A model generated the notes under the pieces. The model worked only from the letters and a program-made list of their open reading frames with translations, was not told where the DNA came from and searched no databases. 64,000 nt of DNA, taken from contig JAJZDI010000007.1 of assembly GCA_021806045.1 (NCBI GenBank), positions 42,803 through 106,802 of the forward strand, written 5' to 3'. Made by a program: the position numbers and the translations under genes. This stretch comes from Actinomycetes bacterium. GTDB taxonomy: Bacteria > Actinomycetota > Acidimicrobiia > Acidimicrobiales > RAAP-2. Shown here piece after piece: positions 9,508 to 58,841 of this stretch. Within the stretch, counting starts at the first letter, position 1. Each line of letters starts with the position of its first letter.

Positions 9508-9520
9508 CCGCCCCGGGCGC

Positions 9521-9568: not shown

Positions 9569-9571
9569 GCG

Positions 9572-17122: not shown

Positions 17123-17181
17123 GCCCAGCGGGTCCGGGAACGTGCCGCCACCGACCGGACCGGCTCCCCGCCACGGGCACC

Positions 17182-40641: not shown

Positions 40642-41490
40642 GTGATCGACCTCCACACCCACTCCACCGTGTCCGATGGGAGCGACCCGCCCGCCCGGGT
40701 GGTGGAGCTGGCCGCCGAGGCCGGTTGCCGGGCCGTCGCCCTCACCGACCACGACTCCCTGGCCGGCCTGGCCGCCGCCGAGGTGCGTGCCGGACAGCTG
40801 GGCATCGAGCTGGTGCCGGGGTGCGAGGTGTCGGTCAAGCCGCCCGCCACCGGGGGGATGCACGTCCTCGTCTACTTCGTCGACGACCCCATGAGCCCCC
40901 TCGGGGTCGAGCTGGACCGCCTGCGGGACGACCGGGCCCGGCGCAACCGGGCGCTGGTGATCCGCCTGGCCGACCTCGGCTTCCCCATCGCCTACGAGGA
41001 CGTGGTGGCCGAGGCCGGGTCCGAGGCGGGTGTGGGCCGCCCCCACTTCGCCCGGGTGCTGGTGGCTTCGGGTGCCGTCTCCTCCGTCCAGGAGGCGTTC
41101 GACCGGCTGCTCGGCAACGGTGCCCCGGCCTACGTGCCCAAGGCCCGGATCGAGGCGCCCCGGGTGGCCGAGCTGGCCACCGCCTCGGGCGGGGTGGCTG
41201 TGCTCGCCCACCCCCTCAGCCTGGGGCTCGCACCCGACGAGCTCGATGCCACCGTCGCCGGCCTGGCCGCCGCCGGGTTCGGGGGCCTCGAGGCCGTCTA
41301 CTCCCGCTACACCCCCGACGAGCGGCGGACGCTCACCGCGCTGGCCCGCAACCACGGCCTGGTGGCGACGGGCGGTTCCGACCACCACGGCACGTTCAAG
41401 CCCGACCTGACGGTGGGCACCGGCGCCGGCGACCTGCGGGTATCTGACAGCGTGCTCGACGAGCTACGGGAGCGCCGGCCGGCAGCCTGA
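40642..41490 (+). CDS. PHP-domain phosphoesterase (TrpH/YciV-like)
   Basis: VIDLHTHSTVSDGS, ALTDHDS and GGSDHHG metal-binding motifs. The GTG has GGAGG 6 nt upstream. Confidence 0.85.
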   Translation: MIDLHTHSTVSDGSDPPARVVELAAEAGCRAVALTDHDSLAGLAAAEVRAGQLGIELVPGCEVSVKPPATGGMHVLVYFVDDPMSPLGVELDRLRDDRARRNRALVIRLADLGFPIAYEDVVAEAGSEAGVGRPHFARVLVASGAVSSVQEAFDRLLGNGAPAYVPKARIEAPRVAELATASGGVAVLAHPLSLGLAPDELDATVAGLAAAGFGGLEAVYSRYTPDERRTLTALARNHGLVATGGSDHHGTFKPDLTVGTGAGDLRVSDSVLDELRERRPAA

Positions 41491-41518: not shown

Positions 41519-41952
41519 ATGCGGACCCACTGGCGCGTCCACGTCCTGCAAGGAGCGGTGCGATCCGGCCGTGCCACAGGCACATGACCGTCACCTCCGG
41601 ATTCGGACGCGCCCGGCGCGGCAGCGGACGCCCTGACGTTCCTGGGCACCCGGCAACACAACAACACGTCCATCGAGATCGCGGTCCGCTGGGAAGACAT
41701 TGCGCTCTCCCGAGACCCCCAGGCCGCCCTGACCCTGCAGCAGCTGGCGCTCGACGAGAGCCTCCTCGGCAACCTGCCGGCAGCCGGAACGGCTCTCAAC
41801 CGCGCGCTCGCCTACGGTCCCGACTTCGAGCCCGTATACGCCGACCAGATCTCGTTGGCGCTGCGAGGGGGACGACCCGGCCTCGCCCGCAGCGGAAGAC
41901 CGTGCCTCCGGCCGAGTGGGAGCGCTGGCACACACGTCCCGGATCTCAGCGG
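41519..41952 (+). pseudogene. TPR-like ORF remnant: 22 codons from ATG, in-frame TGA (41585-41587), then 121 coding-like codons without any start codon
   Basis: The frame after the TGA reads ...AADALTFLGTRQHNNTSIEIAVRWEDIALSRDPQAALTLQQLALDESLLGNLPAAGTALNRALAYGPDFEP... with very high third-position G/C. It is absent from the ORF track because there is no ATG/GTG/TTG. Confidence 0.45.
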
Positions 41953-43001
41953 ATGAGGTCCGACACCCAACTCCTCCAGCCGTTCGAGTAGAGGCGGTAG
42001 TCGCCCCTGCGCACCCGTTCGAAGACCTGGGGAACCCGCCTCCAGCGCCTGCGGGGCAGGTCCTGCCGGAATCGCAGCATTTCCGAAAGGCGCTCGAGAG
42101 TTGCTCGGAACGCCGGGCCGGCCCGTGGACTCGGCATCCGCTCGAGGAGTTCGGATACGTACCGGTACATGGCCGCTTCCGCCACCATCTCGTTCGAGGT
42201 GATCTCGGGATCCGTCAGCCTCCGTGCGTAGAAGCGCACGATGCGCCCGTACCGACGCAACCCCGAGCCCGAGTGGCGGAAGTGCGGGAAGCCGACCGCG
42301 TTCCCGCCGTGGAGACGGTAGGCGATGAGGAGCTCGTCGATGGGCTGGAGCTGCGCCTGCATCGCGATCGCGATCGAGATCCAGATGTCATGGGTGATCG
42401 GGGGCCACGGGTCCATACCCGGGAGCAGGCTCGCCCGGAAGGTCAGCGTCGCGCCGGTCACGACCGGGTGCCGCAGGAGGACGTCCAGTGCCCGACCTGA
42501 CCGGACATCCTCCCGATCGGCGGTGGAGAAGCCCGCCGCGTCCCACAGGTGGACCCCGGTCGGTTCGCCGTCACCGTCGATGCACCAGCCGTTGGTGAAC
42601 ACCGCGCCGACCGCAGGATCAGCGTCGAGGGCGGCAACGGCTCGCTCCAGCTTGGCGGGTGCCCAGATGTCGTCCTGGTCGCACAGCGCGATGAGCTCGC
42701 CCGTCGCGTCGCTGATGGCAGCCCAGAAATTGTCGGGGATGCCCAGTCGCCGCCGGTTCTCGTTCACCACCACCGGGAACGGCGCCGACCGGACGAAGTC
42801 CGCCAGGATCGCCAGGGTGTCGTCAGTCGACCCGTCGTCACGCACGACGAGCTCGTCCGGCAGCCGTGTCTGGATCGCGAGGCTCTCCAGCTGGTAGGGG
42901 AGGAAGGCGGCACCGTTGAAGGTGCACATGACGACGGAGACCGTGCTGCCGCCCGGGTCTCCGGCCTGCCGGGGTGATGCGGGAGGAGGCACCGGGGACA
43001 C
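41946..43001 (-). CDS. GT2-family glycosyltransferase (paralog of 53496-54470)
   Basis: VSVVMCTFNG, VVRDDGSTDDT and ALCDQDDIW. The start is uncertain (GTG at 43001 or 42992). Confidence 0.8.
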   Translation of the reverse strand: MSPVPPPASPRQAGDPGGSTVSVVMCTFNGAAFLPYQLESLAIQTRLPDELVVRDDGSTDDTLAILADFVRSAPFPVVVNENRRRLGIPDNFWAAISDATGELIALCDQDDIWAPAKLERAVAALDADPAVGAVFTNGWCIDGDGEPTGVHLWDAAGFSTADREDVRSGRALDVLLRHPVVTGATLTFRASLLPGMDPWPPITHDIWISIAIAMQAQLQPIDELLIAYRLHGGNAVGFPHFRHSGSGLRRYGRIVRFYARRLTDPEITSNEMVAEAAMYRYVSELLERMPSPRAGPAFRATLERLSEMLRFRQDLPRRRWRRVPQVFERVRRGDYRLYSNGWRSWVSDLIR

Positions 43002-43098
43002 TGTACCGGTCAGGCCCGCAGCCGATTCACGGCCGGACCGCCCGGTCGATGACCGACCGGCGATCCGCACGGACTGGAGGGAGCGCTTTCCCGAAGCG

Positions 43099-45003
43099 CT
43101 ACGACAGCACGCCCATGGCCCGCAACTGGTCCACCACCATGTCGGCGGCGGCGGAAGCGGAGACGTGGACGGTGTCGATCCGGATCTCCGGGTGCTCCGG
43201 GACCTCGTAGGGGGAGTCGACCCCGGTGAGGTTGACCAGCTCACCCCTCCGGCCCTTCCGGTAGAGGCCCTTCGGGTCACGGGTTTCGACCACCTCCAGG
43301 GGCGCGTCCACGAACACCTCGCAGAACTCGCCCACCTCCAGCAGCTCACGGGCGAACCGGCGCTCGGCGGCGAACGGAGAGATGAACGACACCAGGACGA
43401 TCAGCCCCGCGTCGACCATCAGCTTGGTCACTTCGGCCACCCGCCGGATGTTCTCCACGCGATCGACCGCGGTGAACCCGAGATCGCGGTTCAACCCCAG
43501 CCGGACGTTGTCCCCGTCGAGGAGGTACGTGTGCGCACCGAGCGCGTGGAGCTGCTTCTCCACCAGGTTGGAGATCGTGGACTTCCCCGCCCCCGGCAGC
43601 CCGGTGAACCAGACGGCGCATGGCCTGTGGCCGCTCAGGACGGCCCGGGCCGCCTTGTCCACGTCCACCGACTGCCATTGCACGCTGTCGGCTCGCCGCA
43701 GGGCGAAATTGAGCAGTCCTGCCCCCAGCGTGGCGTTGGTGAACCTGTCGATGATGATGAAACCGCCCATGTCGCGGTTCTCGCTGTAGGGATCGAAGGG
43801 GACCGCCTGGTTCAGGCGCAGCGAGCAGACCCCGATTTCGTTGAGGGCGAGGGTCGTTGCCGCCAGGTGCTCCATCGTGTTGACGTTCACCTTGAACTTC
43901 GGCCGGCTCAGGGTCACGCCGACGGTCATCGGGCCGACCTTCATGAGGTAGGGGCGCCCGGGGAACATCTCCCGCTCGTGCATCCAGATGACGTGGGCCT
44001 CGAACTGATCAGCCACCTGGGGCGCACGGCCCTCTTCGCAGACGACGTCCCCGCGGCTGACGTCGATCTCGTCCTCGAGGACGAGGGTGACGGCCTGGCC
44101 GACGACGGCTTCGTCCAGGTCGCCGTCGTAGGTCGTGATGCGGGCGATCCGGCTGCGACGCCCGGAAGGGAGCACCTGGATCGGCTGCCCGGTCCGGACG
44201 GTTCCCCCGACGATGGTTCCGCAATAGCCCCGGAAGTCGTGGTCGGGCCGGTTGACCCACTGCACCGGCATCCGGAACGGGCGGTCCCGGGCCTCGTCCT
44301 CGACGTCCACCAGCTCGAGATGACCGAGCAATGTCGGTCCGTGGTACCACGGAGTGTTCGGGCTGGACGCGATGACGTTGTCGCCGCGCAGGGCCGACAC
44401 CGGGATGCAGGCGATCTCGGTGAGGCCGATCCCGGCAGCGAAGGCCCGGTACTCCGACTCGATCCGGTCGAACACGTCTTCGGAGTAGCCGACCAGGTCC
44501 AGCTTGTTGACGGCCACCACCACCCTGCGGATCCCGAGGAGCGAGACCAGGTAGCTGTGTCGCCGGGTCTGGGTGAGGACACCCTTGCGGGCATCGACCA
44601 GGATCACCGCGAGGTCGGCCGTCGACGCCCCCGTGACCATGTTGCGGGTGTACTGCTCGTGGCCGGGGGTGTCGGCCACGATGAACTTCCGCTTCTCGGT
44701 GGCGAAGAACCGGTAAGCGACGTCGATGGTGATCCCCTGCTCCCGCTCGGCCGCCAAACCGTCGACCAGGAGCGCGAAGTCGAGGTCTCCCCCCTGAGTC
44801 CCGATCCGCCTGGAGTCGGCCTCGAGGGCGGCCAGATGGTCCTCGAACACCTGCTGGGATTCGTAGAGGAGGCGACCGATCAAGGTGCTCTTTCCGTCGT
44901 CGACGCTCCCACAGGTGATGAAGCGGAGAAGTGAGGTGCGCTCGTGGGCGTCGAAGTAGGCGTCGATGTCGCTGGTGATGCGCTCGTCACGGGGGAGCGC
45001 CAT
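43099..45003 (-). CDS. cysNC: Bifunctional sulfate adenylyltransferase subunit 1 / adenylylsulfate kinase (CysNC, NodQ-like)
   Basis: GTPase G1 [14 protein letters not shown] and NKLD. The C-terminal APS-kinase P-loop is GLPGAGKST, with LDGDNVR. Confidence 0.95.
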
Positions 45004-45962
45004 CAGAAGTACCCCTCCTGCTTCTTCTTCTCCATCGAGCCCGAGGCTTCGAAGTCGATCACCCGCCCCTGCCGCTCGGACGTGGTGGCGAGCAGCATCT
45101 CCTGGATGATCTTCTGCACCGTGTCGGCTTCGCTCTCGATGGCGCCGGTAAGCGGGTAACAGCCCAGCGTCCGGAAGCGGACACGTCTCTCCACCGGTCG
45201 CTCCCCCGGCTCGAGGGGCATGCGCTCATCATCGACCATGATCAGCGCGCCGTCGCGCTCGACGACCGGCCGCACGGCGGCGTAGTACAGCGGGACGACC
45301 GGGATCTGCTCAAGGTAGATGTACTGCCAGACATCGAGCTCGGTCCAGTTCGAAAGGGGGAACACCCGGATGGTCTCCCCCTGGTTCCGGCGGACGTTGT
45401 AGACCCGCCACAACTCGGGGCGTTGCTGCTTCGGATCCCAACGGTGCTGCGCCGACCGCAGGGAGAAGATCCGCTCCTTGGCCCGCGACTTCTCCTCGTC
45501 CCGGCGAGCGCCCCCGAACGCGACATCGAACCCGTGGAGGTCGAGGGCCTGCTTCAATCCTTCGGTCTTCCACATGTGCGTATGGACGGCGGACCCGTGG
45601 GTGAACGGGTTGATCGCCTGCTCGAGGCAGTCCGGGTTCTGGTGGACGAGCAACTCCATCCCCAGTTCGGCCACCGTCCAGTCCCGGAACTCGTACATGG
45701 CCCGGAACTTCCAGGTGGTGTCCACGTGGAGGAGGGGGAAAGGCGGGACCGAGGGATGAAAGGCCTTCCGGGCCAGGTGGACCATGACCGAACTGTCCTT
45801 CCCGACGGAGTAGAGCATCACCGGGTTCTCGCTCTCGGCGACCGCCTCCCGCAGGATGTGGATGCTCTCGGCCTCGAGGCGCCGGAGATGGGTCAACCGG
45901 CGGGGCGCGACGGCGCCGGCACGAGGAGTGGCCCGCCCGTCGTTCCCATCATCCACAAGCAT
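45003..45962 (-). CDS. cysD: Sulfate adenylyltransferase subunit 2
   Basis: PP-loop SVGKDS and WNQ-type motifs. The C-terminus ends KKKQEGYF. The stop overlaps the cysNC ATG (TGATG). Confidence 0.95.
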
Positions 45963-46262
45963 CCCCCGGCTCCTTCCCAGCTCGCTCGCCCCCAGGATCG
46001 AACAAGCGGGTCGTCAGCGCCCAGGCCCAAGAACATAGCCCTGGCGGGGCGGTCCGATTCTGTTGGGCCCGGGCTGCGCCCGGAGGGCACGGGGGCACAT
46101 TCCGCCTGGACGTGAACCGCCGAAGCACGCCGTACGCCGCTGCCGGCGAGCCTCGGGCTGGCCTTCGACCACGTGACCCGGTGCGGCCGGGACGGGTCGT
46201 CTCGCACGTGCGGGCGCGCTTCCGGCGGCCCGGGGCCAGCCGGGAGACTGCTGTAGAGTCCC

Positions 46263-47267
46263 GTGCTGGTGCAGTCCACCCGATCCCCCGATCTCGTGCG
46301 AGCGGCCTGCCGGCACCTCCGCGAAGCCGCTGGATCCGCTCGCCGGCGCATCGCCGACGAACGTGGGCGCCTGCGGGCGGCAGCGCGGCGCTCCGCCGGG
46401 CTCCCATGGAGCGAGGGTGACATCGCTCCTCTCTTCGTCCACCCGATCGAGGGACGCTCGGGGACCACGTTGATGATGAAGCTCCTCGACGTTCCCGAGA
46501 TCGCCTTCGACCGGATCTACCCGTTCGAGAACCGCTACTTCGGCTACCTTGCCCACCTCGTCACGCCGATGTCGGCATCGTTTGATCCCGAGGGCCCGTG
46601 GACGACCTCGGAGATGCTGAGGGGCGACCCGACCCGTTACGGCCCGATCCCGTTCCATGCGTCCTCGCTCGACCCGACCGACTTCCGCATACGGTCCGTC
46701 AGGCACCTGTGGCAGGCCCTCGCCGAGTCGCTCGCCGGGTACAGCCGTACCCCGCTCCGCTACTACGCGGAAAAGGCCTGGGGGAACTCGCTCGAGCTCC
46801 TCGCCGAGGCAGGGATCAAGGCCAAGGTGATCAATCTCGTGCGCGATCCGCGTGACGTCGTCTCGTCCATCCGGGCGATGGACGAGAAGCGGGGCTACTT
46901 CGGCTTCGGCCGGACCGACGATATGAGCGAAGACGATTACCTGCAGTTCGTCGTCGCCACCATGCGTCGCAACCTCGACGCGATGTCATCGGCCGAAGCG
47001 GCGCACGACTGCCGTCTCGTCCGCTACGAGGACATCGTGCGCGACCCGGAGCTCGTCACTCGAGACCTGGGGTCATGGCTCGGTGTCGAGCTCGATGCGG
47101 ACAGGTCGGTGCTGGCAGGCCCCATCTTCGATCGTCATGCCACTTCTTCCAGCGCTGAGCAGTCCATCGGGAAGTGGAAGGTGCGCCTTACCGAGCGAGA
47201 AGTCACCGAGATCTCTCGGGTGCTCGGCGCCAGCATGCAGCGGTTCGGCTACGAAGCATCCGGATGA
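46263..47267 (+). CDS. PAPS-dependent sulfotransferase family protein
   Basis: 5'-phosphosulfate-binding-loop-like GRSGTTLMMKLL and 3'-phosphate motif LVRDPRDVVSS. It is divergent from cysD-cysNC. The GTG start is at 46263 or 46269. Confidence 0.75.
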   Translation: MLVQSTRSPDLVRAACRHLREAAGSARRRIADERGRLRAAARRSAGLPWSEGDIAPLFVHPIEGRSGTTLMMKLLDVPEIAFDRIYPFENRYFGYLAHLVTPMSASFDPEGPWTTSEMLRGDPTRYGPIPFHASSLDPTDFRIRSVRHLWQALAESLAGYSRTPLRYYAEKAWGNSLELLAEAGIKAKVINLVRDPRDVVSSIRAMDEKRGYFGFGRTDDMSEDDYLQFVVATMRRNLDAMSSAEAAHDCRLVRYEDIVRDPELVTRDLGSWLGVELDADRSVLAGPIFDRHATSSSAEQSIGKWKVRLTEREVTEISRVLGASMQRFGYEASG

Positions 47268-48790
47268 ACGCCGGTGGGCACCGGGACCGCGTCGCAGCCG
47301 GCGCCGCGTGGAGCCTCGTCTCGTGGGTGGTCGCCCTCGTCGCCGGACCGGTCGTCGCCGTCCTCGTCGTGCACTCGATCTCGCACCGCCAGTACGGCTC
47401 GTTCTCGGAGGCGACATCGCTCGTTGCGATCCTCGCCGGATTGACCAGCCTCGGGCTCTCGACTGCGGTCATCCAGGTCGCAGTGACCGAGCGCTCCCGT
47501 CGTGGCGATGCCGGGGAGGCCGGCGCCATCAACAGTGCGGTGCGCATCGCCGCGGTGACCACCCTCGCAGGCGTAGTGGTCTCGGCAATGGGGGCAGTCC
47601 TCTTGTACTCGGTGCCGTCGCTCAGGCCCTCGGCTTCCCCGTTCATCGCGCTCATCCCGATCGTCCTGCTCGCTCCGTTCGCCGGCGTCGTGAGCGCCGT
47701 CGCTCGGATTCTCTACCGGCCGCGCCACGTCGCCACGGCCGCGATCGCCGCCCCGATATCGGGAGCGGCGATCATGTTCGCGATCATCGTCAGCGGCCAC
47801 GCGAACGACGTCACCATCGCGGCTGCGACGAGCGCGGCGGCCGTCATCGGCTTCGTCACGCTGGCGGCGACACTGCGGCGGTGGTACCGCGGGATCGACC
47901 GTACGGTGAGGCTCGATGGCGGCTCGGCCCGCCTCCTCGCGTTCGGCATCCCGGCCCTGGTGGGTCACGGATTCGTCTTGACCACCTCGGAGCTCACCGT
48001 CCTGTTGCTCGGATCCTCCCATGGCAGCCGGATCGCGGGCCTGTACACGCCGGCGGCGGCCATGGCGCTCACGGTGGTTGCGATCCCGGCAGCCACCAGC
48101 AGCTTCTACCTACCAGCAGCCACGGACCTCGCCGCACATCGCGACCTCGCCGGGCTTGCCGGGCTCTACCACTGGATCACGCGGTGGAACATCACCCTCG
48201 CGTCGCCGGCGATCGCCGTCCTCCTGGTTGCCCCGAAAGCCATACTCACTGTCGTGTTCGGCCCGGCCTTCGCTTCCATGTGCGGGGTGCTGCGCCTCTT
48301 GATGGTCGGTGTCACGGTGCAGGTTGCGAGCGGGTACAACGGCCTCACGCTCGATGCGTTCGGCCTCCCCAAGGTCGTCGCGGCACGCCAAGGGACCGCC
48401 CTGGCTCTGAGCGTCGTGGCGTGCGTCGTCCTGATCCCGACCTTCGGGGCTGCCGGGGCAGCGATCGCGTGCAGCTTCGCTCTGGTCGCGGCCAACATCC
48501 TCACCTCGGCGGTCCTGGCCCTCCGGTTCCGGATCTGGCCATGGGACCGGGCGACGGGCGGTACGTTTGCCGTCCTCGCCGCAGCAATGGCCATCTCGGC
48601 CGGGATGATCGCCACCATCCACAGCACCTTCTGGCAATGTGTGGTCGTGGCTGCCACGAGCGGCACGGCCACCGGCGTGGCCGCCCTGATCTTCGGGGGC
48701 CGTGCCGAGCGCAGTGCCATCGCCAACCGCCTGCGCCGGCGCTTGTCCCGCAACGGCCTCGTACCGGGCACCGTGGAGGAGGGGAGATGA
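47264..48790 (+). CDS. Polysaccharide flippase (Wzx / MOP-superfamily PST type)
   Basis: 508 aa with about 12-14 hydrophobic helices. It has ATGA overlaps with both flanking genes. Confidence 0.75.
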   Translation: MNAGGHRDRVAAGAAWSLVSWVVALVAGPVVAVLVVHSISHRQYGSFSEATSLVAILAGLTSLGLSTAVIQVAVTERSRRGDAGEAGAINSAVRIAAVTTLAGVVVSAMGAVLLYSVPSLRPSASPFIALIPIVLLAPFAGVVSAVARILYRPRHVATAAIAAPISGAAIMFAIIVSGHANDVTIAAATSAAAVIGFVTLAATLRRWYRGIDRTVRLDGGSARLLAFGIPALVGHGFVLTTSELTVLLLGSSHGSRIAGLYTPAAAMALTVVAIPAATSSFYLPAATDLAAHRDLAGLAGLYHWITRWNITLASPAIAVLLVAPKAILTVVFGPAFASMCGVLRLLMVGVTVQVASGYNGLTLDAFGLPKVVAARQGTALALSVVACVVLIPTFGAAGAAIACSFALVAANILTSAVLALRFRIWPWDRATGGTFAVLAAAMAISAGMIATIHSTFWQCVVVAATSGTATGVAALIFGGRAERSAIANRLRRRLSRNGLVPGTVEEGR

Positions 48791-49707
48791 CCGCACGCAG
48801 CGCGGCTGGATCGGTGATGCGGATCGCGCGCCCCGTCGGCCGACGTGCCCCCCGGATCATCCGGCACCCGGGTAGCGCCATGGCGGAGCTTGCCCTCGCC
48901 GCGCTGGAGGCTTCGCACCCGTTCACCCCGGGGGTCTCCACGTTGACCGGGTTTCCCGTGCGATTCACGCACCCCCACTCGTTTCTCGCCCAGTACGAGG
49001 CCATTTTCAGGAACGAGGCCTACGCCTGCCGGCCCGGCCGGCCCGACCCCGTGATCTTCGACTGCGGAGCGAACATCGGCCTCGCCAGCATCTACTGGCT
49101 GAGTAGGTATCCGGGTGCCCGTATCACCTGTTTCGAACCCGATCCATCGATTGCGGCAGTGCTGCGGGACAACCTCGAGGCAGCACGGGCCCACTTCGGC
49201 CTGGAACGGGTCGGGGAGATGCCGGATACGACGACACCCGAACACGTGCCGTCGACGTCGATCGGTTCGGTCAGGGTCGTCGAGGCAGCCCTGTGGATCG
49301 AGACGGGCTCGAAGTCGTTCACCGAACAGGGTGCTGGCGCCGGCCATCTCGGCGGTGGTGGGCGCGTCGTACCGACCGTCCGTCTTTCGGACTACCTCGA
49401 GGCCCATGTGACCACCGCCGGCGGGCGTGTGGACCTCCTCAAGGTCGACATCGAGGGGGCTGAGGTGGACGTGCTCACCGACTGCGAGCCCTGGCTCGGG
49501 TTCGTCGACGCGCTGTTCGTCGAGTTCCATTCGAGCGCCGGCCGACCCCAGCGCTTCGATGAGCTGGTCGGCATCCTCACCAGAGCGGGGTTCCGGCTCG
49601 CTCTCGAGACGGAATTCGCCCCCCGACACCCCTTCGTGGCTCGAGAGGTGCACGAGGGCTTCGACCTGCAACTCAACGTGTACGCCTACCGGGAGCCGTC
49701 GTCGTGA
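48787..49707 (+). CDS. FkbM-family methyltransferase
   Basis: FDCGANIGLAS SAM motif, ITCFEPDP and VDLLKVDIEGAE. Confidence 0.8.
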   Translation: MTARSAAGSVMRIARPVGRRAPRIIRHPGSAMAELALAALEASHPFTPGVSTLTGFPVRFTHPHSFLAQYEAIFRNEAYACRPGRPDPVIFDCGANIGLASIYWLSRYPGARITCFEPDPSIAAVLRDNLEAARAHFGLERVGEMPDTTTPEHVPSTSIGSVRVVEAALWIETGSKSFTEQGAGAGHLGGGGRVVPTVRLSDYLEAHVTTAGGRVDLLKVDIEGAEVDVLTDCEPWLGFVDALFVEFHSSAGRPQRFDELVGILTRAGFRLALETEFAPRHPFVAREVHEGFDLQLNVYAYREPSS

Positions 49708-49915
49708 TGCCTGCTCCTGCCATCTCACACCACGGCATCCCCCTGCTCACGCCACCCACGGCGCGGGTCCGGACCGGTCGCCGGCACCGGCGGTCGGACA
49801 TCGGCGGCGACACCTCCCGGCCCTCCTCCCGGTGGGACCCAGTTCACACCGTCCACGGCTGCTCGGACGCCGAGCGCATCGGGCACGCCGCGTGCACCGG
49901 CAGTCGGGGGGCACG

Positions 49916-51097
49916 GTGAGCCCGGTCCGCGTGCTCTTCGTCGGCCACACCGCTGAACCCACGGGCGCACCGATCGCGTTGCTCGGCCTAGTCCGCCAGC
50001 TCGTCGCTGACGGGGAGGTCGAGCCGGTCTTCCTACTACGTCGCGGTGGGCCCCTCGTCGAGCGCTACCGGGAGCTCGGCGAGGTCACGATCCTCGACGC
50101 CGGCTACAAGCACAAGCTCCGCCGGGCCTCCGAGATGGTGAAGGCCGGCCCGGCCTTCGACGCAGCGTACCGGCACGGGCTCGGGGCCTGGTTCCGGGCC
50201 CGCTGCAGAGCCTGGCGCGTCGACGCCATCTACCTCAACACCATCACCCACGGCGACATCGCGGGGCTGCTCTCGACCGTCGGCGTACCCATCATCTGCC
50301 ACGTCCACGAGATGGGCCGGTTCGTCGCCCGCGAAGTGAGCCCTGCACAGTTCCGGTCCCTCATCGACACCGTCAGCCGCTGGGTCGCCGTCTCCACTCC
50401 GGTCGAGGAGATGTTGGTGGAACACGGTGTCGACCGCCGGAAGATCACCCTCGTGTCCGCGAGTGTGGAGATGCCCAAGCCGCTCCCGGACGACGAACGC
50501 GCCGAGTTGCGGAAGCACTCGTTCGGCGTGCCCAGGTCGACACGGGTGCTGGCGACGTGCGGAACACCTTCGTGGACCAAGGGCCCGGAGCTCTTCCTGC
50601 AGCTCGCGCTGCGCCTCAGGCACCTCCGCGCCGACAAGCCCGACCCGTTCCTCGCGGTGTGGATCGGAGCGGATCGCCAGTACCCGGGCACGCTGACCAT
50701 GGAAGAGGACGCGCGCCAGATGGACCTCGCCGGCCATGTGAAGCTCATCGGGTTCCGCCAGGATGCGTCCACACTCCTCGGAGCGGCCGACGTCGTGGCG
50801 AGCACCTCCCGTGAGGACCCGAAACCGCTGGTGATCCTCGAGGCGGCTGCGGCCGGCGTACCGGTCGTCTGTTTCGAAGGCTCCGGGGGCGCCACCGATG
50901 TGGTGCGGGCCGGGGGCGGGCTCATGGTCCCCTACCTCGACGTCGACGCGATGAGCGTCGCCGTCTCCGAGCTGTTCGACGACGCAGACCGCTCAGCCGC
51001 GCTGGGACAGGCGGGGCGTGACTACGTCGCCAACCACGCCACCCACGAGGTCACCACCCCCGAGATCGCGCGGTTGATCCGAGACGCCCTCATGTGA
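49916..51097 (+). CDS. GT4-family glycosyltransferase
   Basis: RVLFVGHTAEPTGAP N-terminus. The C-terminus reads VVASTSREDPKPLVILEAAAAGVPVVCF (E-x7-E). Confidence 0.8.
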   Translation: MSPVRVLFVGHTAEPTGAPIALLGLVRQLVADGEVEPVFLLRRGGPLVERYRELGEVTILDAGYKHKLRRASEMVKAGPAFDAAYRHGLGAWFRARCRAWRVDAIYLNTITHGDIAGLLSTVGVPIICHVHEMGRFVAREVSPAQFRSLIDTVSRWVAVSTPVEEMLVEHGVDRRKITLVSASVEMPKPLPDDERAELRKHSFGVPRSTRVLATCGTPSWTKGPELFLQLALRLRHLRADKPDPFLAVWIGADRQYPGTLTMEEDARQMDLAGHVKLIGFRQDASTLLGAADVVASTSREDPKPLVILEAAAAGVPVVCFEGSGGATDVVRAGGGLMVPYLDVDAMSVAVSELFDDADRSAALGQAGRDYVANHATHEVTTPEIARLIRDALM

Positions 51098-51151
51098 CCG
51101 CCGGCGCCGATCCTCCCGGCACCGGCGCCTGCGTTCACGTGGCAGGACCGC

Positions 51152-51352: not shown

Positions 51353-52852
51353 CTAGGTGAGCTGGATGGCGGGATCCCGCGTGGCCGACCGGAGGACCAG
51401 CGAGGCGTACCCGGCCGAGAGATCGCCGGCTGCCGCCTGGTTGAACCCGAGCCGCCGCCGGGCCGTCGCATCGAGCGGGTCCCGCGACACCGCCAACTGG
51501 TCCCAAGGGAGCGCGAGCCGGTAGTACCCGGCGTTCCTCTGGGCTTCGACGTCGAGGAAGTCGGACAGCGCGTTGGCGGCGTCGTTCCACATGGGAAGCC
51601 GGCTGTTGGCTGACGCCAACGTCGCCAGGTCGTGGTTGGTGATGCCGGAATTCAGCTGGGTGTTCCCGATCATCACCATCAGGCCAGCGAAGAGGGCCAG
51701 GGCGACGAGCACCACCTGCGCGGCGATCCTCGGCGTGGACGGCCGGTCGGTGACACCCTGCGATGACCGGGAACCCGGCGGAAGGTCGCGCTCGAATGCA
51801 CCGACGGCTGCCGCACCCAGGGCGAGAAAGGCGAGGCCGGTGGCCGTGAGGTCGAGGGGCTCGAGCAGCCCGCCGGCGAAGAGCGCGATCGAGTAGAGCA
51901 GGAGCGCATCCCGGGCCCGACGGAACGCGGGGACCAACCAGGCCACGAACAGGGCCAGGCCGAGGAGTCCCGTCGTGACGGCGATCTCGACCAGGATGTT
52001 GTGGGTGTCGGGGAACACACCGTCGTGCAGGACCGTCGTGACCGACCGGTAGGGAAGTGTCGCGGACTCGGACTGACCGGGCCCCGACCCGAAGACCGGA
52101 TGGGCCTCCACGGCGTGCGGGCTGGCGGTCCAGATCCGCATCCGGGGCCCGAATGCCCCACTTGCACCCTCGGACGTGACCGTCCGGAAGGGGACGGAGG
52201 TCCCCAGGCGCACCAGGGACTGGATGGCCAGGCCCACCAGGAGCCCGCCGCCGGCGGCGACGGCGAAGGCCACGGCCGCCTTGCCTCGACGCGCCACCAC
52301 CACCCAGATGAACAGCCCCTCGATGAACAACAGGCTGTAGCGCTCCCCCGTCAGGTACGTCTCCACGCCGAGCCCGCCGACCATGACCCACCAGCTCCAG
52401 ACGAAGGACCCGAGCAACGACCAGCCCTGCCCGCCCACCTCGAGAAGGGTCACCCCCGCGTTGAGTAGCTCGAGGACGAGCAGGCCCTTGCCGAGGAGCG
52501 ACGCGCCCGATGTCCCGACACCGGTTCCGAGGGCCCAGAGCGCGGCCAGCCCCACCAGGGAGAGCCAGCCCGTACCGACCTCGTTGGCGCCGAAGAACCC
52601 GATCAGCGGTGCGGTCGACAGGGCGGCGGAGACCGAGGCCACCACCAGGAAGGCGACGGCTGCTCGGGCTGACCACGAGACCGCCGAGCGCCAGGTGCGC
52701 AGCGCCAGGATCGGCAGACCGAGCGCCGCCAGCACGAGGAAGACGGTGGCTCTCGGCCCGAAGTACACCGTCCGCTCGTTCGGACGGGCGGCGACCTGGC
52801 CGGCCAGGACGGCACCGACGGCGACCACCCACGCCAACACGCTCGGCGGCAA
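51353..52852 (-). CDS. O-antigen polymerase/ligase-family (Wzy-like) membrane protein with C-terminal TPR-like tail; possibly disrupted
   Basis: About 10 TM helices and a periplasmic-loop motif HAVEAHPVFGSGPGQ...DTHNILVE. The only start is a TTG without an SD. See the flanking features. Confidence 0.65.
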   Translation of the reverse strand: MPPSVLAWVVAVGAVLAGQVAARPNERTVYFGPRATVFLVLAALGLPILALRTWRSAVSWSARAAVAFLVVASVSAALSTAPLIGFFGANEVGTGWLSLVGLAALWALGTGVGTSGASLLGKGLLVLELLNAGVTLLEVGGQGWSLLGSFVWSWWVMVGGLGVETYLTGERYSLLFIEGLFIWVVVARRGKAAVAFAVAAGGGLLVGLAIQSLVRLGTSVPFRTVTSEGASGAFGPRMRIWTASPHAVEAHPVFGSGPGQSESATLPYRSVTTVLHDGVFPDTHNILVEIAVTTGLLGLALFVAWLVPAFRRARDALLLYSIALFAGGLLEPLDLTATGLAFLALGAAAVGAFERDLPPGSRSSQGVTDRPSTPRIAAQVVLVALALFAGLMVMIGNTQLNSGITNHDLATLASANSRLPMWNDAANALSDFLDVEAQRNAGYYRLALPWDQLAVSRDPLDATARRRLGFNQAAAGDLSAGYASLVLRSATRDPAIQLT

Positions 52853-53495: not shown

Positions 53496-54470
53496 TCAGA
53501 GCAGGAAGAGATCCCGCTCCCACGCGAACCTCCCGATCGCGCCCGATGCGTAGGCGCCACTACGGACCCGTCCCAGCACGAGGGGCAGGCGGCGGATGAA
53601 CCGGTCGGGAAGCGCGAGCTGGAATCGGAGCAGATCCAGCTCACGGTCGATGCGCTGGCGGGTGGCCGGTGCGAGCAGTGGGTCGGCCGCCTGGTCCGCA
53701 CGTTCCAGGAGCGCCTGCCGCAGGTGGAACTGATGTGCCAGCGTCTCCTGGCGCAGCCCCCGGTCGCGCAGGTGGCGGGCGAGGGCCGGCAAGGCGGCGG
53801 TCGGATGCAGGCCGATGGCGTTGGAGGCGTGCAACCGGTAGAAGATCAAGGGCTCGTCGATCGGCTTCACCCGAGCCTTCGACGCGATCGCCGCCGAGAT
53901 CCAGTAGTCGTGGGTGATCGGCGGCGCCGGTCGGAGGAAGGTGAGCAAGGACGAGCGGAAGGTCACCGTGGCCCCCGTCACCACCGGGCGCCTCAGCAGC
54001 ACATCGAGCTCGTGTCCCGAACGGAACTGCGCCAGCACGTCCTCGGTGAGGCCGGCGAGCTCCCACAGCGTCTGCCCCGTCGAGGCGCCTCGCTCGTCGA
54101 TGCAGCGCCCGTTGCTGAACGTCGCGCCAACGTGCGGATCGTCGTCGAGAACGTCGATCGCTCGCTGCAGCCGGGACGGGTGCCAAACATCGTCCTGATC
54201 GCAGAGTGCGATGAGGTCGCCCCGGGCGTCGCCGATGGCGGCCCAGAAGTTCGCCGGGATGCCCAGTCTCTGCTGATTGACGGAGATCCGCACCGGCACC
54301 GCTGATCGATGGGCGAAGTCGTCGAGGACCTCCCGGGTGGCATCGTGGGATGCGTCGTCACGAACCACGATTTCGTCCGGCGGGCAGGTCTGGCCGGCGA
54401 GACTGTCGAGCTGGGTCGCCAAGAAGTCGGCTCCGTCGAACGTGCAGAGGACCACGGAGACCGAGCTCAC
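53496..54470 (-). CDS. GT2-family glycosyltransferase (paralog of 41946-43001)
   Basis: VSVVLCTFDG, VVRDDASHDAT and ALCDQDDVW. It is colinear with the other copy over the full length (roughly 55-60% identical by eye). The GTG start is at 54470. Confidence 0.8.
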   Translation of the reverse strand: MSSVSVVLCTFDGADFLATQLDSLAGQTCPPDEIVVRDDASHDATREVLDDFAHRSAVPVRISVNQQRLGIPANFWAAIGDARGDLIALCDQDDVWHPSRLQRAIDVLDDDPHVGATFSNGRCIDERGASTGQTLWELAGLTEDVLAQFRSGHELDVLLRRPVVTGATVTFRSSLLTFLRPAPPITHDYWISAAIASKARVKPIDEPLIFYRLHASNAIGLHPTAALPALARHLRDRGLRQETLAHQFHLRQALLERADQAADPLLAPATRQRIDRELDLLRFQLALPDRFIRRLPLVLGRVRSGAYASGAIGRFAWERDLFLL

Positions 54471-54994
54471 ACCGGTTCCATCCGTTCCGGGTGGTGCGAC
54501 ATCCCTGAGCCGGTCACGACCGCAGGTGCCGTGCCCTCGTCGCCCCCGTGCACACCGGCCGTCACCGGTAGGCGCAGCCGGCAGCCGACACGACGACGAG
54601 AGAGGAGACGCCGACCCCATCCGCGGGGCGCATGCGCATGCTCGGTCCCGCAGCCGACGACGACCTGGCCTTCTGCCCGGCACGGCGTGCGACACCGGCG
54701 CCCGGACGGCGGGATCCGTCACGTCCCCGCATGGGTTCGCGACTACCTCCCACGGCCTCGTGGGTGCCGCCGACCCGGGGGCCGAACACCGAACAGCCGG
54801 CCTGCCGCACAACGGTCGTGGCAACGACGGCCGGACACTGGCACAGAGATCCTCTCGGTCGTTTGGGCGATCATACTGCCGGCGAGAGCTCGGTCGCTTC
54901 TCGCTGGGCAGCGCATCGCCCGCACGCGGGCTCCCCGGTTGGCCCGCGCGTCGCCCGCGCCCCCTGCATCTGCGACAGGAGCAGTCCGTCGCCG

Positions 54995-55933
54995 TCAGGT
55001 TCCGGCGCGGCGAGCCGAGCCCCGCGCTCCGACCGGGCCCGTGACCATCGCCCGCCACGCCGACAGCGCGCGTGACGGCCGGCGGGCGCTCAGCGTGGCC
55101 GCCCGCACCGCGGCGGCACCGACCGCCATCACCCACTGGCTGGCTCTGAACCACGTCGCCGCGAACGTCATCGTCCCCCGCCACCATTCGATCTCCCGGT
55201 CCCACGACGACGTGCTCGAGCCCCCGGCATGGTGCACGGCCCACGGAACCGGCAGGGCCACCAGGCGCCATCCGGCCTCGGTCCAGCGTTTTGACAGGTC
55301 CGTGTCCTCCCCGTAGAGGAAGAAGCGCTGGTCGAACCCGCCGACCTCGTCAAAGGCCGCCCGCCGAACCAGGAGCGCAGTGGCTCCGAGCGCGGCGGTG
55401 TCCGCCGGACCGTCCGGCACCCGCTCGACGTGGTCGGCGACACCGGGGAAACGCAGGGCCATCGACCGCACGGGGCGCCACCTGAGCAGGCTCCGCAGGC
55501 GGAGTGCCCGGCCCCAGAGATGGACCGGACCCAGCAGGATCCCCTGGCTCCGCTCGGGCAGCCCGGTCGCCTCGTCGATGATCACGCCCTGGCAGGCAGC
55601 GATCCGTGGCTGGGCGTCGAGCAGCGCCATGCCCTCCTCGACCGCGCCAGGCACCAGCGCCGCGTCGGGGTTCATCAGGAGCACGTAGGCGGCACCGGTC
55701 AGCGCCATACCCCGGTTGTGCCCGGCACCGAAGCCCGGGTTGGACGGGTCGCGGACCACGACGGCACCCATCGACGACGCCACCTCATCGGAGCCGTCGT
55801 CCCCGTGGTCGACCACCACCACCGTTCCCATCCCCCGGACCGCCCGCAACGAGGCGAGGCAGCGACCCACGTCGTCACGGCTGGCGTAGGTCACGACCAC
55901 GGCATCCACCAGAGGATAGGGCTCCCCGGTCAC
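54995..55933 (-). CDS. GT2-family glycosyltransferase (WbbL/rhamnosyltransferase-like)
   Basis: DAVVVTYASRDD, VVVDHGDDGSD, GFGAGHN, and FFLYGEDTDL (the ED motif). Confidence 0.8.
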   Translation of the reverse strand: MTGEPYPLVDAVVVTYASRDDVGRCLASLRAVRGMGTVVVVDHGDDGSDEVASSMGAVVVRDPSNPGFGAGHNRGMALTGAAYVLLMNPDAALVPGAVEEGMALLDAQPRIAACQGVIIDEATGLPERSQGILLGPVHLWGRALRLRSLLRWRPVRSMALRFPGVADHVERVPDGPADTAALGATALLVRRAAFDEVGGFDQRFFLYGEDTDLSKRWTEAGWRLVALPVPWAVHHAGGSSTSSWDREIEWWRGTMTFAATWFRASQWVMAVGAAAVRAATLSARRPSRALSAWRAMVTGPVGARGSARRAGT

Positions 55934-57111
55934 GGGCTCCCACCGGCCAGGTCCGGCGGACCAGGTGAGCTCGTTCCGACATCCGGCGGACCGGACGACC
56001 GGGCCCCGAGCTCGGGTGGATCGAACAGGGCGCGGACCCGTACGGCCATGTGCTCGTGCGTGTACCGGAGACGGACCTCGTCCTGCGCTTGGCAGCCCAG
56101 ATCCCGCGCGCCGGCGGGGTCATCGAGCAGCGCGACGATCTGGCGGGCGAACGGGCGGCCTACCTCCGCGACCCGGACCGGCAATCCGGGAGCGAAGCCG
56201 GCGGCAGCGGCCGGGGAGATCACCTGCGGCCGGCCGGCGGCAGCGGCTTCGAGCACCTTGATCTGCATACCGGTGGCGAAGGGCAGGGGAGCTATGGAGA
56301 GGGTGGCGCGGACGACCAGGCGGCCGAACCCTGCGAAGTCGGGCACCAGCTCCGCCCCCATCGCCCGCACCAGGTCGCGCACCTCCCGTGTCGGTCGCCG
56401 GCCCGCCACACACAGGGACGACCCCGGTCGGAGCCGCAACACTTCCGGCCAGATGGAGGTGGCCAGTTCCCGGATCGCGGCGACGTTCGGGCCGTAGTCG
56501 AGGGTGCCGGTGAACAACACGTCGACCGGGGACTCCCCCTCGACCAGACGTGGAAGCTCCCGGCCGACACGAGCAACCGGCAGGGTGATGGGGAACCAGG
56601 CTGCCCCGAGCACGCCGGCATCGCGGTAGCCGGCTGCGACGGTCGACACGCCGACGGCTCTCGCCGCCGATTCGGCCCGGGCCATCGTCCGCGCCAGCAC
56701 ATGCCAGCCGGCCCGGTACAGGCGGCGTTGCTCGATGAAGGCCCGCTGGCCGTAGCTCTCGCTCAACCGGTCGACGTAGTCGAGCACCACCGGCACGCCT
56801 CCGGGGAGGGTGGTGGGGTCGAATGCCCGGAGCGAGATCACCACCACGCCGTCGGGCGCGATCACGTCGAGACGGCGGCGCAGTGCGGGACCGGACCACG
56901 CCAACGACTCCAGTGAGACGGCACCGGTGAGCGCGGCACCGGCGCGCCCGAGACCGCGGGGGAGGAGTCGTTGGCCGTCGGGAACCAGGGGCACGGCGAC
57001 CACCTCGACACCCGAGAGGGCGAGCACGTCCTGCCACCATTCCAGGCGCGTCGTCGCTCCCCCACCGCGCGTGACGGCGTGGACGACCGCGACCCGTTGC
57101 ATGGTGGCCAT
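55930..57111 (-). CDS. GT4-like (GT-B) glycosyltransferase
   Basis: The C-terminal half reads VLFTGTLDYGPN...GMQIKVLEAAAAGRPQVISP. It has a 4-nt overlap with the downstream GT2. Confidence 0.7.
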   Translation of the reverse strand: MATMQRVAVVHAVTRGGGATTRLEWWQDVLALSGVEVVAVPLVPDGQRLLPRGLGRAGAALTGAVSLESLAWSGPALRRRLDVIAPDGVVVISLRAFDPTTLPGGVPVVLDYVDRLSESYGQRAFIEQRRLYRAGWHVLARTMARAESAARAVGVSTVAAGYRDAGVLGAAWFPITLPVARVGRELPRLVEGESPVDVLFTGTLDYGPNVAAIRELATSIWPEVLRLRPGSSLCVAGRRPTREVRDLVRAMGAELVPDFAGFGRLVVRATLSIAPLPFATGMQIKVLEAAAAGRPQVISPAAAAGFAPGLPVRVAEVGRPFARQIVALLDDPAGARDLGCQAQDEVRLRYTHEHMAVRVRALFDPPELGARSSGPPDVGTSSPGPPDLAGGSP

Positions 57112-57342
57112 CCTCGCAGAGCAGTGTCACGACCGCCTCGAATCGCCCCGATGGGCACCGGGCTGAACGTCCCGAGAACGCGGTCCCGAACCCGGGATCG
57201 GCGGCCGGATCGGCGGCATGAGCCCCAGATCGCACCTCGCTGGTGCGGATGTGCAACCACCGGACCACCCAGACGCCGCCATCAGGCCCGCCATGCCGCC
57301 CCGCGACCACCGGAGGCCCCACGAGGAGGACGCCGCCGCCCC

Positions 57343-57371
57343 TCGACCTGCCCGGACGTCGGCCGTATAAT
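57343..57371 (+). promoter_or_regulatory. Candidate promoter TCGACC-17 nt-TATAAT for the priming sugar transferase
   Basis: A perfect TATAAT at 57366-57371 lies inside the only AT-rich patch (GTATAATTTTTCAGG) of this intergenic region. A -35-like TCGACC lies at 57343-57348. Confidence 0.45.
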
Positions 57372-57417
57372 TTTTCAGGCCGGAGGGGAAGCAGGAACGA
57401 GGGCGAGGGGGAAGGAC

Positions 57418-57513
57418 ATGACGACGCGGCCTACAGCCAGGTCGTCACGCGGCCCGGTGTCTCCCGTCCTCGGGCGTCCGGCGCCCAACGGGGTCCACGA
57501 GGTCAACCGATGA
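57418..57513 (+). CDS. Candidate 31-codon upstream ORF (MTTRPTARSSRGPVSPVLGRPAPNGVHEVNR) coupled to the sugar transferase
   Basis: The ATG is preceded by the purine tract GGAGGGGAAGCAGGAACGAGGGCGAGGGGGAAGGAC. Its TGA overlaps the transferase ATG (ATGA at 57510-57513). Confidence 0.3.
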   Translation: MTTRPTARSSRGPVSPVLGRPAPNGVHEVNR

Positions 57514-58841
57514 GGCGCCTCCGGCACCTGGGGGTCGCTCTCGCCCCGATCGTGGTGGTGCTGGTGCTCGCCGAGCTCCACGCCCACCTGATCGGCCATT
57601 ACCGCTTCACCGGGACCCCGCGGTTCGCATGGACGGCTGCCTACACCGTGCTGATCGAGCTGTCTGCCTACCTGGCGGGGATGTTCGATGACCAGCGGTC
57701 CGCGATGTCCGCCATCCGGTCCGCGCTCGGAGCGGCACTGGGCGGGGGCATCGCCATCTCCCTCTTCCAGCTGATCCTGGGCTCGCTGCTCTTGCCCCGG
57801 GCGGTGATCTTCGGCTCGGCACTGCTCCTGTTCGGCTTCGACCTCGCCGTGGGGCTCTCCGCAAACCGGGACCTCCGCGACGGGGGTGGCGACCGGGTGC
57901 TCGGGGTGCTCAGCCCCGACGAGGCCATGCCGCTTGAGGCCGACTTCGAGCGCGTTCTCGAACGGCCGGCCCACGTCGTGGGGGTGCTCGAACCGAGCGA
58001 GGTGGCGACCACCAGTGGGGCCGGCGCGGAGTCGCCCGGACTGCTCCTGCTCGACGCGGGCATCCGGATGCGGGCGACCGTGGTGGTGCTCGGCCGCAAA
58101 GCGCTCGCCGACGAGTCCATCGTCGCCCAGGCGGCCCTGCTGCACGGCCGAGGCGTGCGGGTGCGGACCCTCGGCCTCTTCTACGACGAATGGTTCGGAA
58201 AGCTGCCCATTGCCGACCTCGAGCGGGTGTCGCTCATGTTCGACATCCAGGAGCTCCACGCTCTCGGCTACGCCCGGCTGAAGCGGATCGTCGACTTGAC
58301 GGCCGCCTCGGTCGGGTTGGTGGTCCTGGCGGTGGTCGCCCCGCTGGTGTGGGTCCTCGACCAGTTCGGCAATCGGGGGCCGCTGTTCTTCCGCCAGACC
58401 CGGGTGGGCAAGGGAGGGGAACCGTTCTCCATCGTGAAGTTCCGCACCATGCCGCCCACGACGGAGCCCACCGAGTGGACCCGGGAGTCGGACCCCCGCA
58501 TCGGCGTGCTCGGAAAGTGGATGCGCAGGTTCCACATCGACGAGCTCCCGCAGTCGATCAACGTCCTGAAGGGTGAGTTGTCGTTGGTGGGTCCCCGGCC
58601 CGAGCAGCCGCGCTACGTCGAGGAGCTGCTCCAGAAGATCCCCTTCTACGACGTCCGTCACCTGGTGTTGCCGGGGATCACCGGTTGGGCTCAGGTCAAG
58701 TTCCCCTACGGTGCCAGCGTGGAGGACGCCTTGGAGAAGCTCCAGTACGAGTTCTTCTACCTCCGCCACCAGGGTCCGATGCTCGATGCCCGCATCCTCG
58801 CCCGCACCGTCCGCACGGTGCTGCGGGCCGGGGGGAGATGA
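57510..58841 (+). CDS. Undecaprenyl-phosphate sugar-1-phosphate transferase (WbaP/EpsB-type bacterial sugar transferase)
   Basis: Four N-terminal TM helices. The C-terminal catalytic domain has KRIVDL, GPLFFRQTRVG, FRTM, DELPQ and LVGPRPE. Confidence 0.9.
   Translation: MRRLRHLGVALAPIVVVLVLAELHAHLIGHYRFTGTPRFAWTAAYTVLIELSAYLAGMFDDQRSAMSAIRSALGAALGGGIAISLFQLILGSLLLPRAVIFGSALLLFGFDLAVGLSANRDLRDGGGDRVLGVLSPDEAMPLEADFERVLERPAHVVGVLEPSEVATTSGAGAESPGLLLLDAGIRMRATVVVLGRKALADESIVAQAALLHGRGVRVRTLGLFYDEWFGKLPIADLERVSLMFDIQELHALGYARLKRIVDLTAASVGLVVLAVVAPLVWVLDQFGNRGPLFFRQTRVGKGGEPFSIVKFRTMPPTTEPTEWTRESDPRIGVLGKWMRRFHIDELPQSINVLKGELSLVGPRPEQPRYVEELLQKIPFYDVRHLVLPGITGWAQVKFPYGASVEDALEKLQYEFFYLRHQGPMLDARILARTVRTVLRAGGR

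Follow-up and report, generated by a model that had tools for sequence, protein, structure and literature searches.

A probable Wzx/Wzy-type polysaccharide island with its own sulfation module in an actinomycete genome

Gene content of the locus

We analyzed a stretch of 64,000 nucleotides (the window, G000:C1:42803-106802) from contig JAJZDI010000007.1 of the Actinomycetes bacterium assembly GCA_021806045.1, a 3.1 Mb genome in 43 contigs with a high guanine-plus-cytosine (GC) content and an estimated completeness of 97%. All coordinates are positions of the window, position 1 being the first letter of the stretch. An island of 18.5 kb (from approximately 41.5 to 60.0 kb) carries two genes for synthesis of the activated sulfate donor 3'-phosphoadenosine 5'-phosphosulfate (PAPS), namely cysD and a fusion of cysN with an adenosine 5'-phosphosulfate (APS) kinase, together with the gene of a predicted sulfotransferase. 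The first-pass annotation of this DNA had read these as dedicated PAPS-synthesis genes and a sulfotransferase placed inside a glycan island, and profile matches and a second, assimilatory gene set elsewhere in the genome support that reading. The genes that carry it, including three that follow the sulfotransferase gene, are listed below.

43099..45003, minus strand: cysNC, CysN-APS kinase fusion (GTP_EFTU and APS_kinase domains; NF004035, 1017 bits)
45003..45962, minus strand: cysD, ATP sulfurylase small subunit (NF009214, 541 bits)
45963..46262, no strand: divergent intergenic region between cysD and the sulfotransferase gene (300 bp)
46263..47267, plus strand: predicted PAPS-dependent sulfotransferase (PF13469, PF00685; the start may be GTG 46269)
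47264..48790, plus strand: Wzx-type (MOP / Polysacc_synt) flippase (full-length homology to PF01943 proteins)
48787..49707, plus strand: FkbM-family methyltransferase (TIGR01444, PF05050)
49832..51097, plus strand: GT4a, GT4 glycosyltransferase (PF00534, PF13692; start at GTG 49832 or 49892)

The cysNC product (634 residues) contains both of its domains in the Pfam scan and aligns with positions 5-629 of the 632 of model NF004035, well above the cut-off of 715 bits, and CysD likewise exceeds the cut-off of its own model (413 bits). The stop codon of cysD and the start codon of cysNC overlap in the sequence TGATG, and an AGGAG motif stands ahead of the cysD ATG. The G1, G3, and G4 motifs of the CysNC GTPase, the P-loop and LDGD motif of its APS kinase, and the PP-loop of CysD (SVGKDS) are all intact, so CysNC is not a kinase-dead fusion. 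In the whole genome, the APS kinase profile PF01583 matches the island cysNC only. At the amino acid level, the island CysNC shares 64-66% identity with CysNC of alpha- and betaproteobacteria versus 47% with the CysN encoded elsewhere in the same genome. The head-to-head arrangement of this pair with the sulfotransferase gene, which had been noticed at first reading, is borne out by the profile scores and by the 300-bp gap that separates cysD from its neighbor. This gap presumably holds the promoters of both genes. A scan of it for sigma-70 promoters and terminators found nothing, the sigma-70 consensus being uninformative for a high-GC actinomycete.

Separation from sulfate assimilation

A pair of cysD and cysNC genes might also be the ordinary assimilatory housekeeping set of the genome that merely chances to neighbor a glycan locus. 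Consistent with this, APS kinase is common in the lineage, being present in 50 of 61 relatives (whereas the sulfotransferase family described below is rare among them), and cysC directly adjoins cysH in G038 (C335), G056 (C1), and G060 (C13), three genomes from other families of the order. However, the search for a further cysDN/cysH set that the first-pass annotation had proposed as a check was positive. A second cysD-cysN pair is located on contig C25, with 47% identity to the island copies, and its CysN ends at residue 440 without a kinase domain. This pair adjoins a divergent cysH and a gene encoding a cysG N-terminal domain, and sulfite reductase is encoded on contig C28. The island pair, for its part, does not occur at this site in 11 other genera, and it is closer to proteobacterial CysNC than to the genome's own copy.

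The CysH encoded on C25 (G000:C25:44429-45163) lacks the second cysteine of the usual CxxC motif (PCGxxxCC...SIGCAPTT), for which reason a need for PAPS in assimilation had seemed possible. Nearly all of the 30 orthologues that were compared share this cysteine pattern, eight of them from genomes without APS kinase (G006, G010, G014, G015, G016, G017, G022, and G029). Since these relatives retain the same type of CysH, which works there without an APS kinase, assimilation does not need PAPS, and we judged it unlikely that the C25 enzyme is a PAPS reductase. With these results the housekeeping explanation is already largely refuted, and we regard it as very improbable. Within the limits set by the incompleteness of metagenome-assembled genomes (MAGs), we infer an APS route for assimilation here and a role of the island kinase in supplying the sulfotransferase. 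As a separate observation, CysH from C25 has an extra conserved cysteine upstream (in PCGxxxCC), with which the iron-sulfur cluster of an APS reductase may be coordinated by a different set of four ligands.

The sulfotransferase

The open reading frame (ORF) at 46263-47267 was identified as a sulfotransferase by three approaches, in agreement with the first reading of the sequence. First, it matched the Pfam profiles PF13469 (57.0 bits, cut-off 27) and PF00685 (30.2 bits, cut-off 22). Second, a search of the PDB with a profile of the family retrieved sulfotransferases only, specifically the CurM and OLS sulfotransferase domains, SULT4A1, and TPST1. Third, an AlphaFold model of the protein (predicted local distance difference test 88.8, predicted template-modelling score 0.80) was compared with the PDB by Foldseek, and all of the top 50 fold matches were PAPS sulfotransferases. 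The best were the tyrosylprotein sulfotransferases TPST1 and TPST2 (E ~4e-7), with TM-scores among the top matches of 0.50-0.54 when normalized by the query and 0.50-0.64 when normalized by the target.

Both motifs on which the first reading had relied are where they were expected, GRSGTTL at residues 64-70 (the 5'-phosphosulfate-binding loop) and RDPRDVVSS at residues 194-202 (the 3'-phosphate-binding motif). None of 24 homologues departs from R194, D195, P196, R197, or S202, and each of G64, R65, G67, and T69 is kept in at least 90% of them. In the alignment with TPST1 the two motifs match RSGTTL and RDGRASVHS, and the lysine of YYAEK aligns with the lysine of LCNKD. Thus RSGTTL, the YYAEK lysine, and RDxRxxxxS line up with the PAPS-binding and catalytic positions of TPST. 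A hydropathy scan showed no transmembrane segment, and the protein is predicted to be cytoplasmic.

Searches against further families were negative. Stf0, which the first-pass annotation had named among the families to be checked, does not apply to this ORF, as PF09037 gave no match in the Pfam scan at E <= 0.001. A whole-genome search for PF09037 found nothing either, but is uninformative since the control genomes were equally silent. The NCBIfam scan of the ORF gave no match. Within this 97%-complete genome, the island sulfotransferase is the only match to Sulfotransfer_3, to Sulfotransfer_1, and to the profile of the family itself. Apart from the conserved domain, residues 1-53 (46263-46420) form an arginine-rich extension of about 50 residues at the N-terminus that is predicted to contain one long basic helix (residues 9-45). 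Many homologues have N-terminal extensions of similar composition and different sequence, which could make contact with the membrane or with a partner protein.

Coupled genes and conserved gene order

The stop codon of the sulfotransferase gene and the start codon of the next gene overlap in an ATGA at 47264-47267, as had been described for its coupling to a Wzx flippase. The identity of this flippase required closer scrutiny. The ORF has approximately 12-14 hydrophobic segments in a hydropathy scan; it gave no Pfam match at E <= 0.01 and matched NF007773 over its full length but weakly (E 2.8e-4, 20 bits versus a cut-off of 273). Full-length alignments with proteins in syntenic positions that do match PF01943 nevertheless give 36-38% identity (E 3e-78 and 5e-89), and on this transitive homology we accept the ORF as a predicted Wzx. 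A second ATGA overlap joins the stop codon of wzx to the start codon of fkbM, with GGAGGAGG upstream of the latter. The product of fkbM matched TIGR01444 with 73.6 bits (cut-off 37.7) and PF05050 with 59.9 bits (cut-off 22.7). The gene that follows, GT4a, shows homology to its relatives from about position 49919. A frameshift at the junction between fkbM and GT4a was considered and rejected, since homology begins only there and a GTG start at 49832 or 49892 gives a protein of normal GT4 length.

Two FkbM genes had been counted in the first reading of the island, of which the one at 48787-49707 stands. The other (17182-18069) is 24 kb upstream in a separate cassette, and the genes of an aldehyde dehydrogenase, an acyltransferase, and purF and other unrelated genes lie between the two. 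That cassette is a co-directional glycosyltransferase block at 6907-19007, unrelated to the sulfation island, that encodes an Anp1/Mannosyl_trans3 protein, a GT4 enzyme, a GT2-TPR protein, and a DUF7948/TIG surface protein of 1107 residues, as well as the FkbM protein.

Among 1.84 billion cluster representatives (50% identity), 833 belong to the family of this sulfotransferase at E <= 1e-30. A strong member was found in only two of 400 other sampled Actinomycetota genomes and in only about five of 60 close relatives. Loci of the family were searched with an alignment of 13 sequences. The order sulfotransferase (ST)-Wzx-FkbM-GT4 recurs in a Solirubrobacterales MAG (L009), in an Acidimicrobiales MAG (L010), and in two metagenome contigs (L131 and L133); the two of these four loci that bear a taxon label are assigned to other classes of Actinomycetota. 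In L131, the sulfotransferase gene and wzx also overlap by 4 bp. Other members directly precede a GT4 homologue or sit among genes for GT2, Wzz, and Bac_transf proteins. An APS kinase gene occurs within 5 kb in L009, L039, and L053. In one genome (G043, locus L126, G043:C34, 60-3855), cysD, cysN, cysC, and the sulfotransferase gene are colinear on one strand in an operon-like arrangement, the sulfotransferase being 31% identical to that of the island.

These gene neighborhoods bear on the acceptor of the sulfate group. The closest structural neighbors of the enzyme are tyrosylprotein sulfotransferases, human and tick, and not carbohydrate sulfotransferases, and both the RSGTTL motif of its 5'-phosphosulfate-binding loop and the lysine of YYAEK align with TPST1. 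TPST and RaxST sulfate tyrosine residues of proteins. The acceptor might not be a glycan at all: a surface or secreted protein (on a tyrosine), a small metabolite, or a lipid could take the sulfate, and the enzyme would then share only its location with the glycan genes. We find this improbable. The likeness in fold is generic among PAPS sulfotransferases, and TM-scores near 0.5-0.6 cannot identify an acceptor, whereas the sulfotransferase gene overlaps wzx, its order with wzx, fkbM, and the GT4 gene recurs in the four metagenomic loci, with MAGs from two further classes among them, and further members of the family also lie among glycosyltransferase, Wzz, and Bac_transf genes.

Tentatively, and with slightly less than even confidence, we propose that ST-Wzx-FkbM-GT4 is a mobile four-gene cassette common to several classes of Actinomycetota (Actinomycetes, Thermoleophilia, and Acidimicrobiia), that it adds a sulfated, O-methylated terminal sugar to lipid-linked repeat units and brings with it a flippase suited to this anionic unit, and that its sulfotransferase founds an uncharacterized subfamily with a TPST-like fold. 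If this were true, sulfated capsular or wall polysaccharides made by an intact cassette would be the first of their kind from Gram-positive actinomycetes. Elsewhere in the family, some members (P0072, P0102, P0127, P0143, P0155, P0164, and P0169) are domains at either end of proteins of 590-930 residues, which suggests fusions to other glycan enzymes.

The remainder of the island

The other features of the island and of its left flank are given below.

40648..41490, plus strand: PHP-family phosphatase (NF041577, E 1.3e-53, 182 bits, below the cut-off of 400); left flank, outside the island
41594..41872, plus strand: remnant of a second wzy (C-terminal TPR-like tail without a start codon; 81% identity over 93 residues to sister species G001)
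41946..43070, minus strand: GT2a, GT2 glycosyltransferase (PF00535, E 1.1e-24; the longest ORF reaches 43349)
51353..52852, minus strand: core of a wzy-type polymerase, apparently damaged (PF04932, E 7.9e-16)
53496..54722, minus strand: GT2b, GT2 glycosyltransferase (PF00535, E 1.3e-23; the longest ORF reaches 55271)
54995..55933, minus strand: GT2c, GT2 glycosyltransferase (PF00535, E 6.3e-11)
55930..57111, minus strand: GT4b, GT4 glycosyltransferase (PF13692, E 8.7e-10)
57243..58841, plus strand: priming polyprenyl-phosphate glycosylphosphotransferase, Bac_transf (PF02397, E 1.2e-53; TIGR03025, E 6e-73; five transmembrane segments; the start may be 57510)
59087..59716, minus strand: DDE transposase fragment (PF13751, E 6.2e-20)

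GT2a follows cysNC on the same strand after 28 nt, so that the PAPS genes are embedded in glycan operons; it is also a paralogue of GT2b (49% identity). The insertion of the island has separated the PHP phosphatase gene from purL. In a gene-order comparison, purM, purF, the PHP phosphatase gene, and purL were contiguous in 11 other genera of the family. The GC content of the island is 0.67-0.70 versus 0.74 in the flanks, and its right edge is marked by the DDE transposase fragment. A repeat search at the island edges did not find a target-site duplication or att-like repeats. We consider it likely that this is a horizontally acquired polysaccharide island of the Wzx/Wzy type that has its own sulfation module.

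The PHP phosphatase at the left edge was considered as a candidate phosphatase for 3'-phosphoadenosine 5'-phosphate (PAP), the by-product of sulfation. Its best match is a model of 3',5'-nucleoside bisphosphate (pAp) phosphatases, followed by RNase RNM. As an island-borne PAP phosphatase it was rejected, since it is a core gene that is also present in relatives without the island and without APS kinase (44 of 61 relatives have it). The enzyme may still be a sink for PAP, one that to judge from this distribution did not arrive with the island.

Damage to wzy and the sister species

Several observations weigh against the island being a working pathway for a sulfated polymer. The first concerns the polymerase gene (wzy region 51150-53166, minus strand), in which an in-frame TAG at 51353-51355 stands where sister species G001 reads tyrosine (IQLTYTNLVETALAR in the sister species versus IQLT*SNLVETALAR here) and is followed in frame by 67 homologous codons. 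In addition, a Lys/Ala/Pro-rich N-terminal extension of wzy (ATG 53166) and the membrane core do not share a reading frame, whereas the extension of the paralogue in G001 is in frame. The second wzy is reduced to a start-less remnant of 93 residues that shares 81% identity with residues 554-646 of its intact counterpart in G001. Genes for Wzz/tyrosine kinase, an LCP ligase, and nucleotide-sugar synthesis were not found in the island, and the flippase, as described above, was recognized through its relatives and not through a Pfam match.

The state of the sister species points in the same direction. Its locus (L113; C113, 1-9962) is JAJZAC010000050.1 of 'Actinomycetes bacterium FK5.bin72', in which cysD and cysNC are intact with 88-90% identity to the island copies. 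The sulfotransferase gene, on the other hand, is cut at residue 171, where it abuts the middle of wzy, and nothing remains of wzx, fkbM, or GT4a. At this one insertion site, the two sister species have lost different portions of the pathway. Compared with the island described here, these losses show a locus in flux, and the lack of the sulfotransferase cassette in the sister species makes its present-day function uncertain.

The wzy lesions in turn place the present production of a polymer by this strain in doubt, and the island could be a decaying relic in which the sulfation cassette is intact and damage to both polymerase genes has put an end to the polymer; export would then be limited to single decorated repeat units at most. 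The stop codon and the displaced extension of wzy, the remnant at 41594-41872, the absence of wzx, fkbM, GT4a, and the C-terminal part of the sulfotransferase from G001, and the transposase fragment at the island edge are all in keeping with such decay. On the other side, cysD, cysNC, the sulfotransferase gene, wzx, fkbM, and all the glycosyltransferase genes are full-length with a strong coding signal. The membrane core of Wzy and its Wzy_C domain are uninterrupted, the TAG costing only about 67 C-terminal residues, and the lesions themselves could be assembly errors. Weighing both sides, we deem a relic rather unlikely, although this is the alternative that we take most seriously.

Proposed pathway

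The island carries genes for its own activated sulfate and for the only Sulfotransfer_1/_3-type sulfotransferase of the genome, so its genes probably came together for the synthesis of a sulfated and methylated sugar polymer. In the mechanism that we propose, CysD and CysNC of the island would convert sulfate to APS and then to PAPS independently of the assimilatory cysH-cysDN genes, the products of which would use APS directly. The repeat unit would be assembled on undecaprenyl diphosphate by the priming transferase and the five GT2/GT4 enzymes. The cytoplasmic sulfotransferase would transfer sulfate from PAPS to a sugar of this lipid-linked unit, and the FkbM enzyme would O-methylate the unit. 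Both modifications are placed on the cytoplasmic face because PAPS and S-adenosylmethionine are cytoplasmic. The translationally coupled Wzx would then flip the decorated, anionic unit outward for polymerization by Wzy, and the by-product PAP could be hydrolyzed by the adjacent housekeeping PHP phosphatase. The identity of the acceptor, the order of sulfation before flipping, and the continued activity of the pathway in this strain are the parts of this scheme that we infer from gene content and context.

Comparison with known systems

Rhizobial NodP/NodQ with NodH and mycobacterial CysD/CysNC with Stf0 are systems in which CysD and a CysN-APS kinase fusion feed PAPS to a carbohydrate sulfotransferase. 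The rhizobial NodPQ pair is an extra copy beside the assimilatory genes, whereas Mycobacterium tuberculosis has no known ATP sulfurylase other than cysDNC, which is not known to be linked to stf0. The acceptors are a lipochitooligosaccharide (the Nod factor) in the former case and trehalose in the latter. The first-pass annotation had likened the island to both. The likeness to NodPQ holds, in that cysD and cysNC of the island are also an extra copy beside a separate assimilatory set. In contrast to both systems, the proposed acceptor here is a Wzx/Wzy repeat unit, and the sulfotransferase ORF has no Stf0 match. The closest documented parallel is found not in mycobacteria but in the capsule locus of Vibrio sp. 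KMM 8419.

In that locus, second copies of cysD, cysN, and cysC are located with sulfotransferase genes in a polysaccharide cluster, and the capsule has been shown chemically to be sulfated (PMC11641403). Its authors regard such cysDNC copies and sulfotransferases within a cluster as a hallmark of sulfated polysaccharide synthesis (PMC11641403), and in the island cysD, cysNC, and the sulfotransferase gene are likewise located among the genes of a priming transferase, five glycosyltransferases, wzx, and wzy. A similar locus is reported for Cobetia marina KMM 1449 (PMC11766843). The island and the Vibrio locus share extra PAPS genes with one or more sulfotransferases in the cluster and signs of horizontal transfer, the Vibrio locus varying between strains. 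They differ in that Vibrio sp. KMM 8419 is a Gram-negative gammaproteobacterium that uses an ABC-transporter (Kps) route and has separate cysN and cysC genes, whereas the island has an actinomycete host, a predicted Wzx/Wzy route, fused cysN and cysC, and a single sulfotransferase.

Two further clusters resemble the island in their export route. The synechan cluster (xss) of Synechocystis sp. PCC 6803 is a Wzx/Wzy cluster with sulfotransferases of the PF00685/PF13469 type and a priming transferase, and in the model proposed for it the repeat unit is decorated on the cytoplasmic face and then flipped by Wzx (PMC8205485). Unlike the island, this cluster is plasmid-borne and cyanobacterial, with two sulfotransferases and no FkbM gene coupled to wzx, and PAPS and cysN genes go unmentioned in the text of the paper (PMC8205485). 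The wps-1 cluster of Actinoplanes missouriensis, also of the Wzx/Wzy type, has sulfotransferase and methyltransferase genes from which a sulfated exopolysaccharide was predicted, a prediction not yet verified (PMC13390465, 2026). Its sulfotransferases, however, belong to other families (Gal/GlcNAc-type and heparan-sulfate-type InterPro domains), genetic phenotypes exist for wps-1, and the paper makes no mention of PAPS or cysN genes (PMC13390465).

Sulfated polysaccharides are valued biomaterials, and chemical proof of them in bacteria comes from a few groups, namely cyanobacteria and some marine Gram-negatives. A clean example from an actinomycete would widen this range, and the comparison with the sister species shows the turnover to which such loci are subject. 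The island combines a PAPS supply of its own with one sulfotransferase and a compact four-gene cassette that is found again in related uncultured lineages, and so offers a small and testable set of genes with which glycan sulfation could be engineered in Gram-positive hosts. The concept of PAPS genes and sulfotransferases in polysaccharide clusters is already published, and what the island adds to it is modestly new: the actinomycete host, the conserved four-gene cassette, and the uncharacterized sulfotransferase subfamily.

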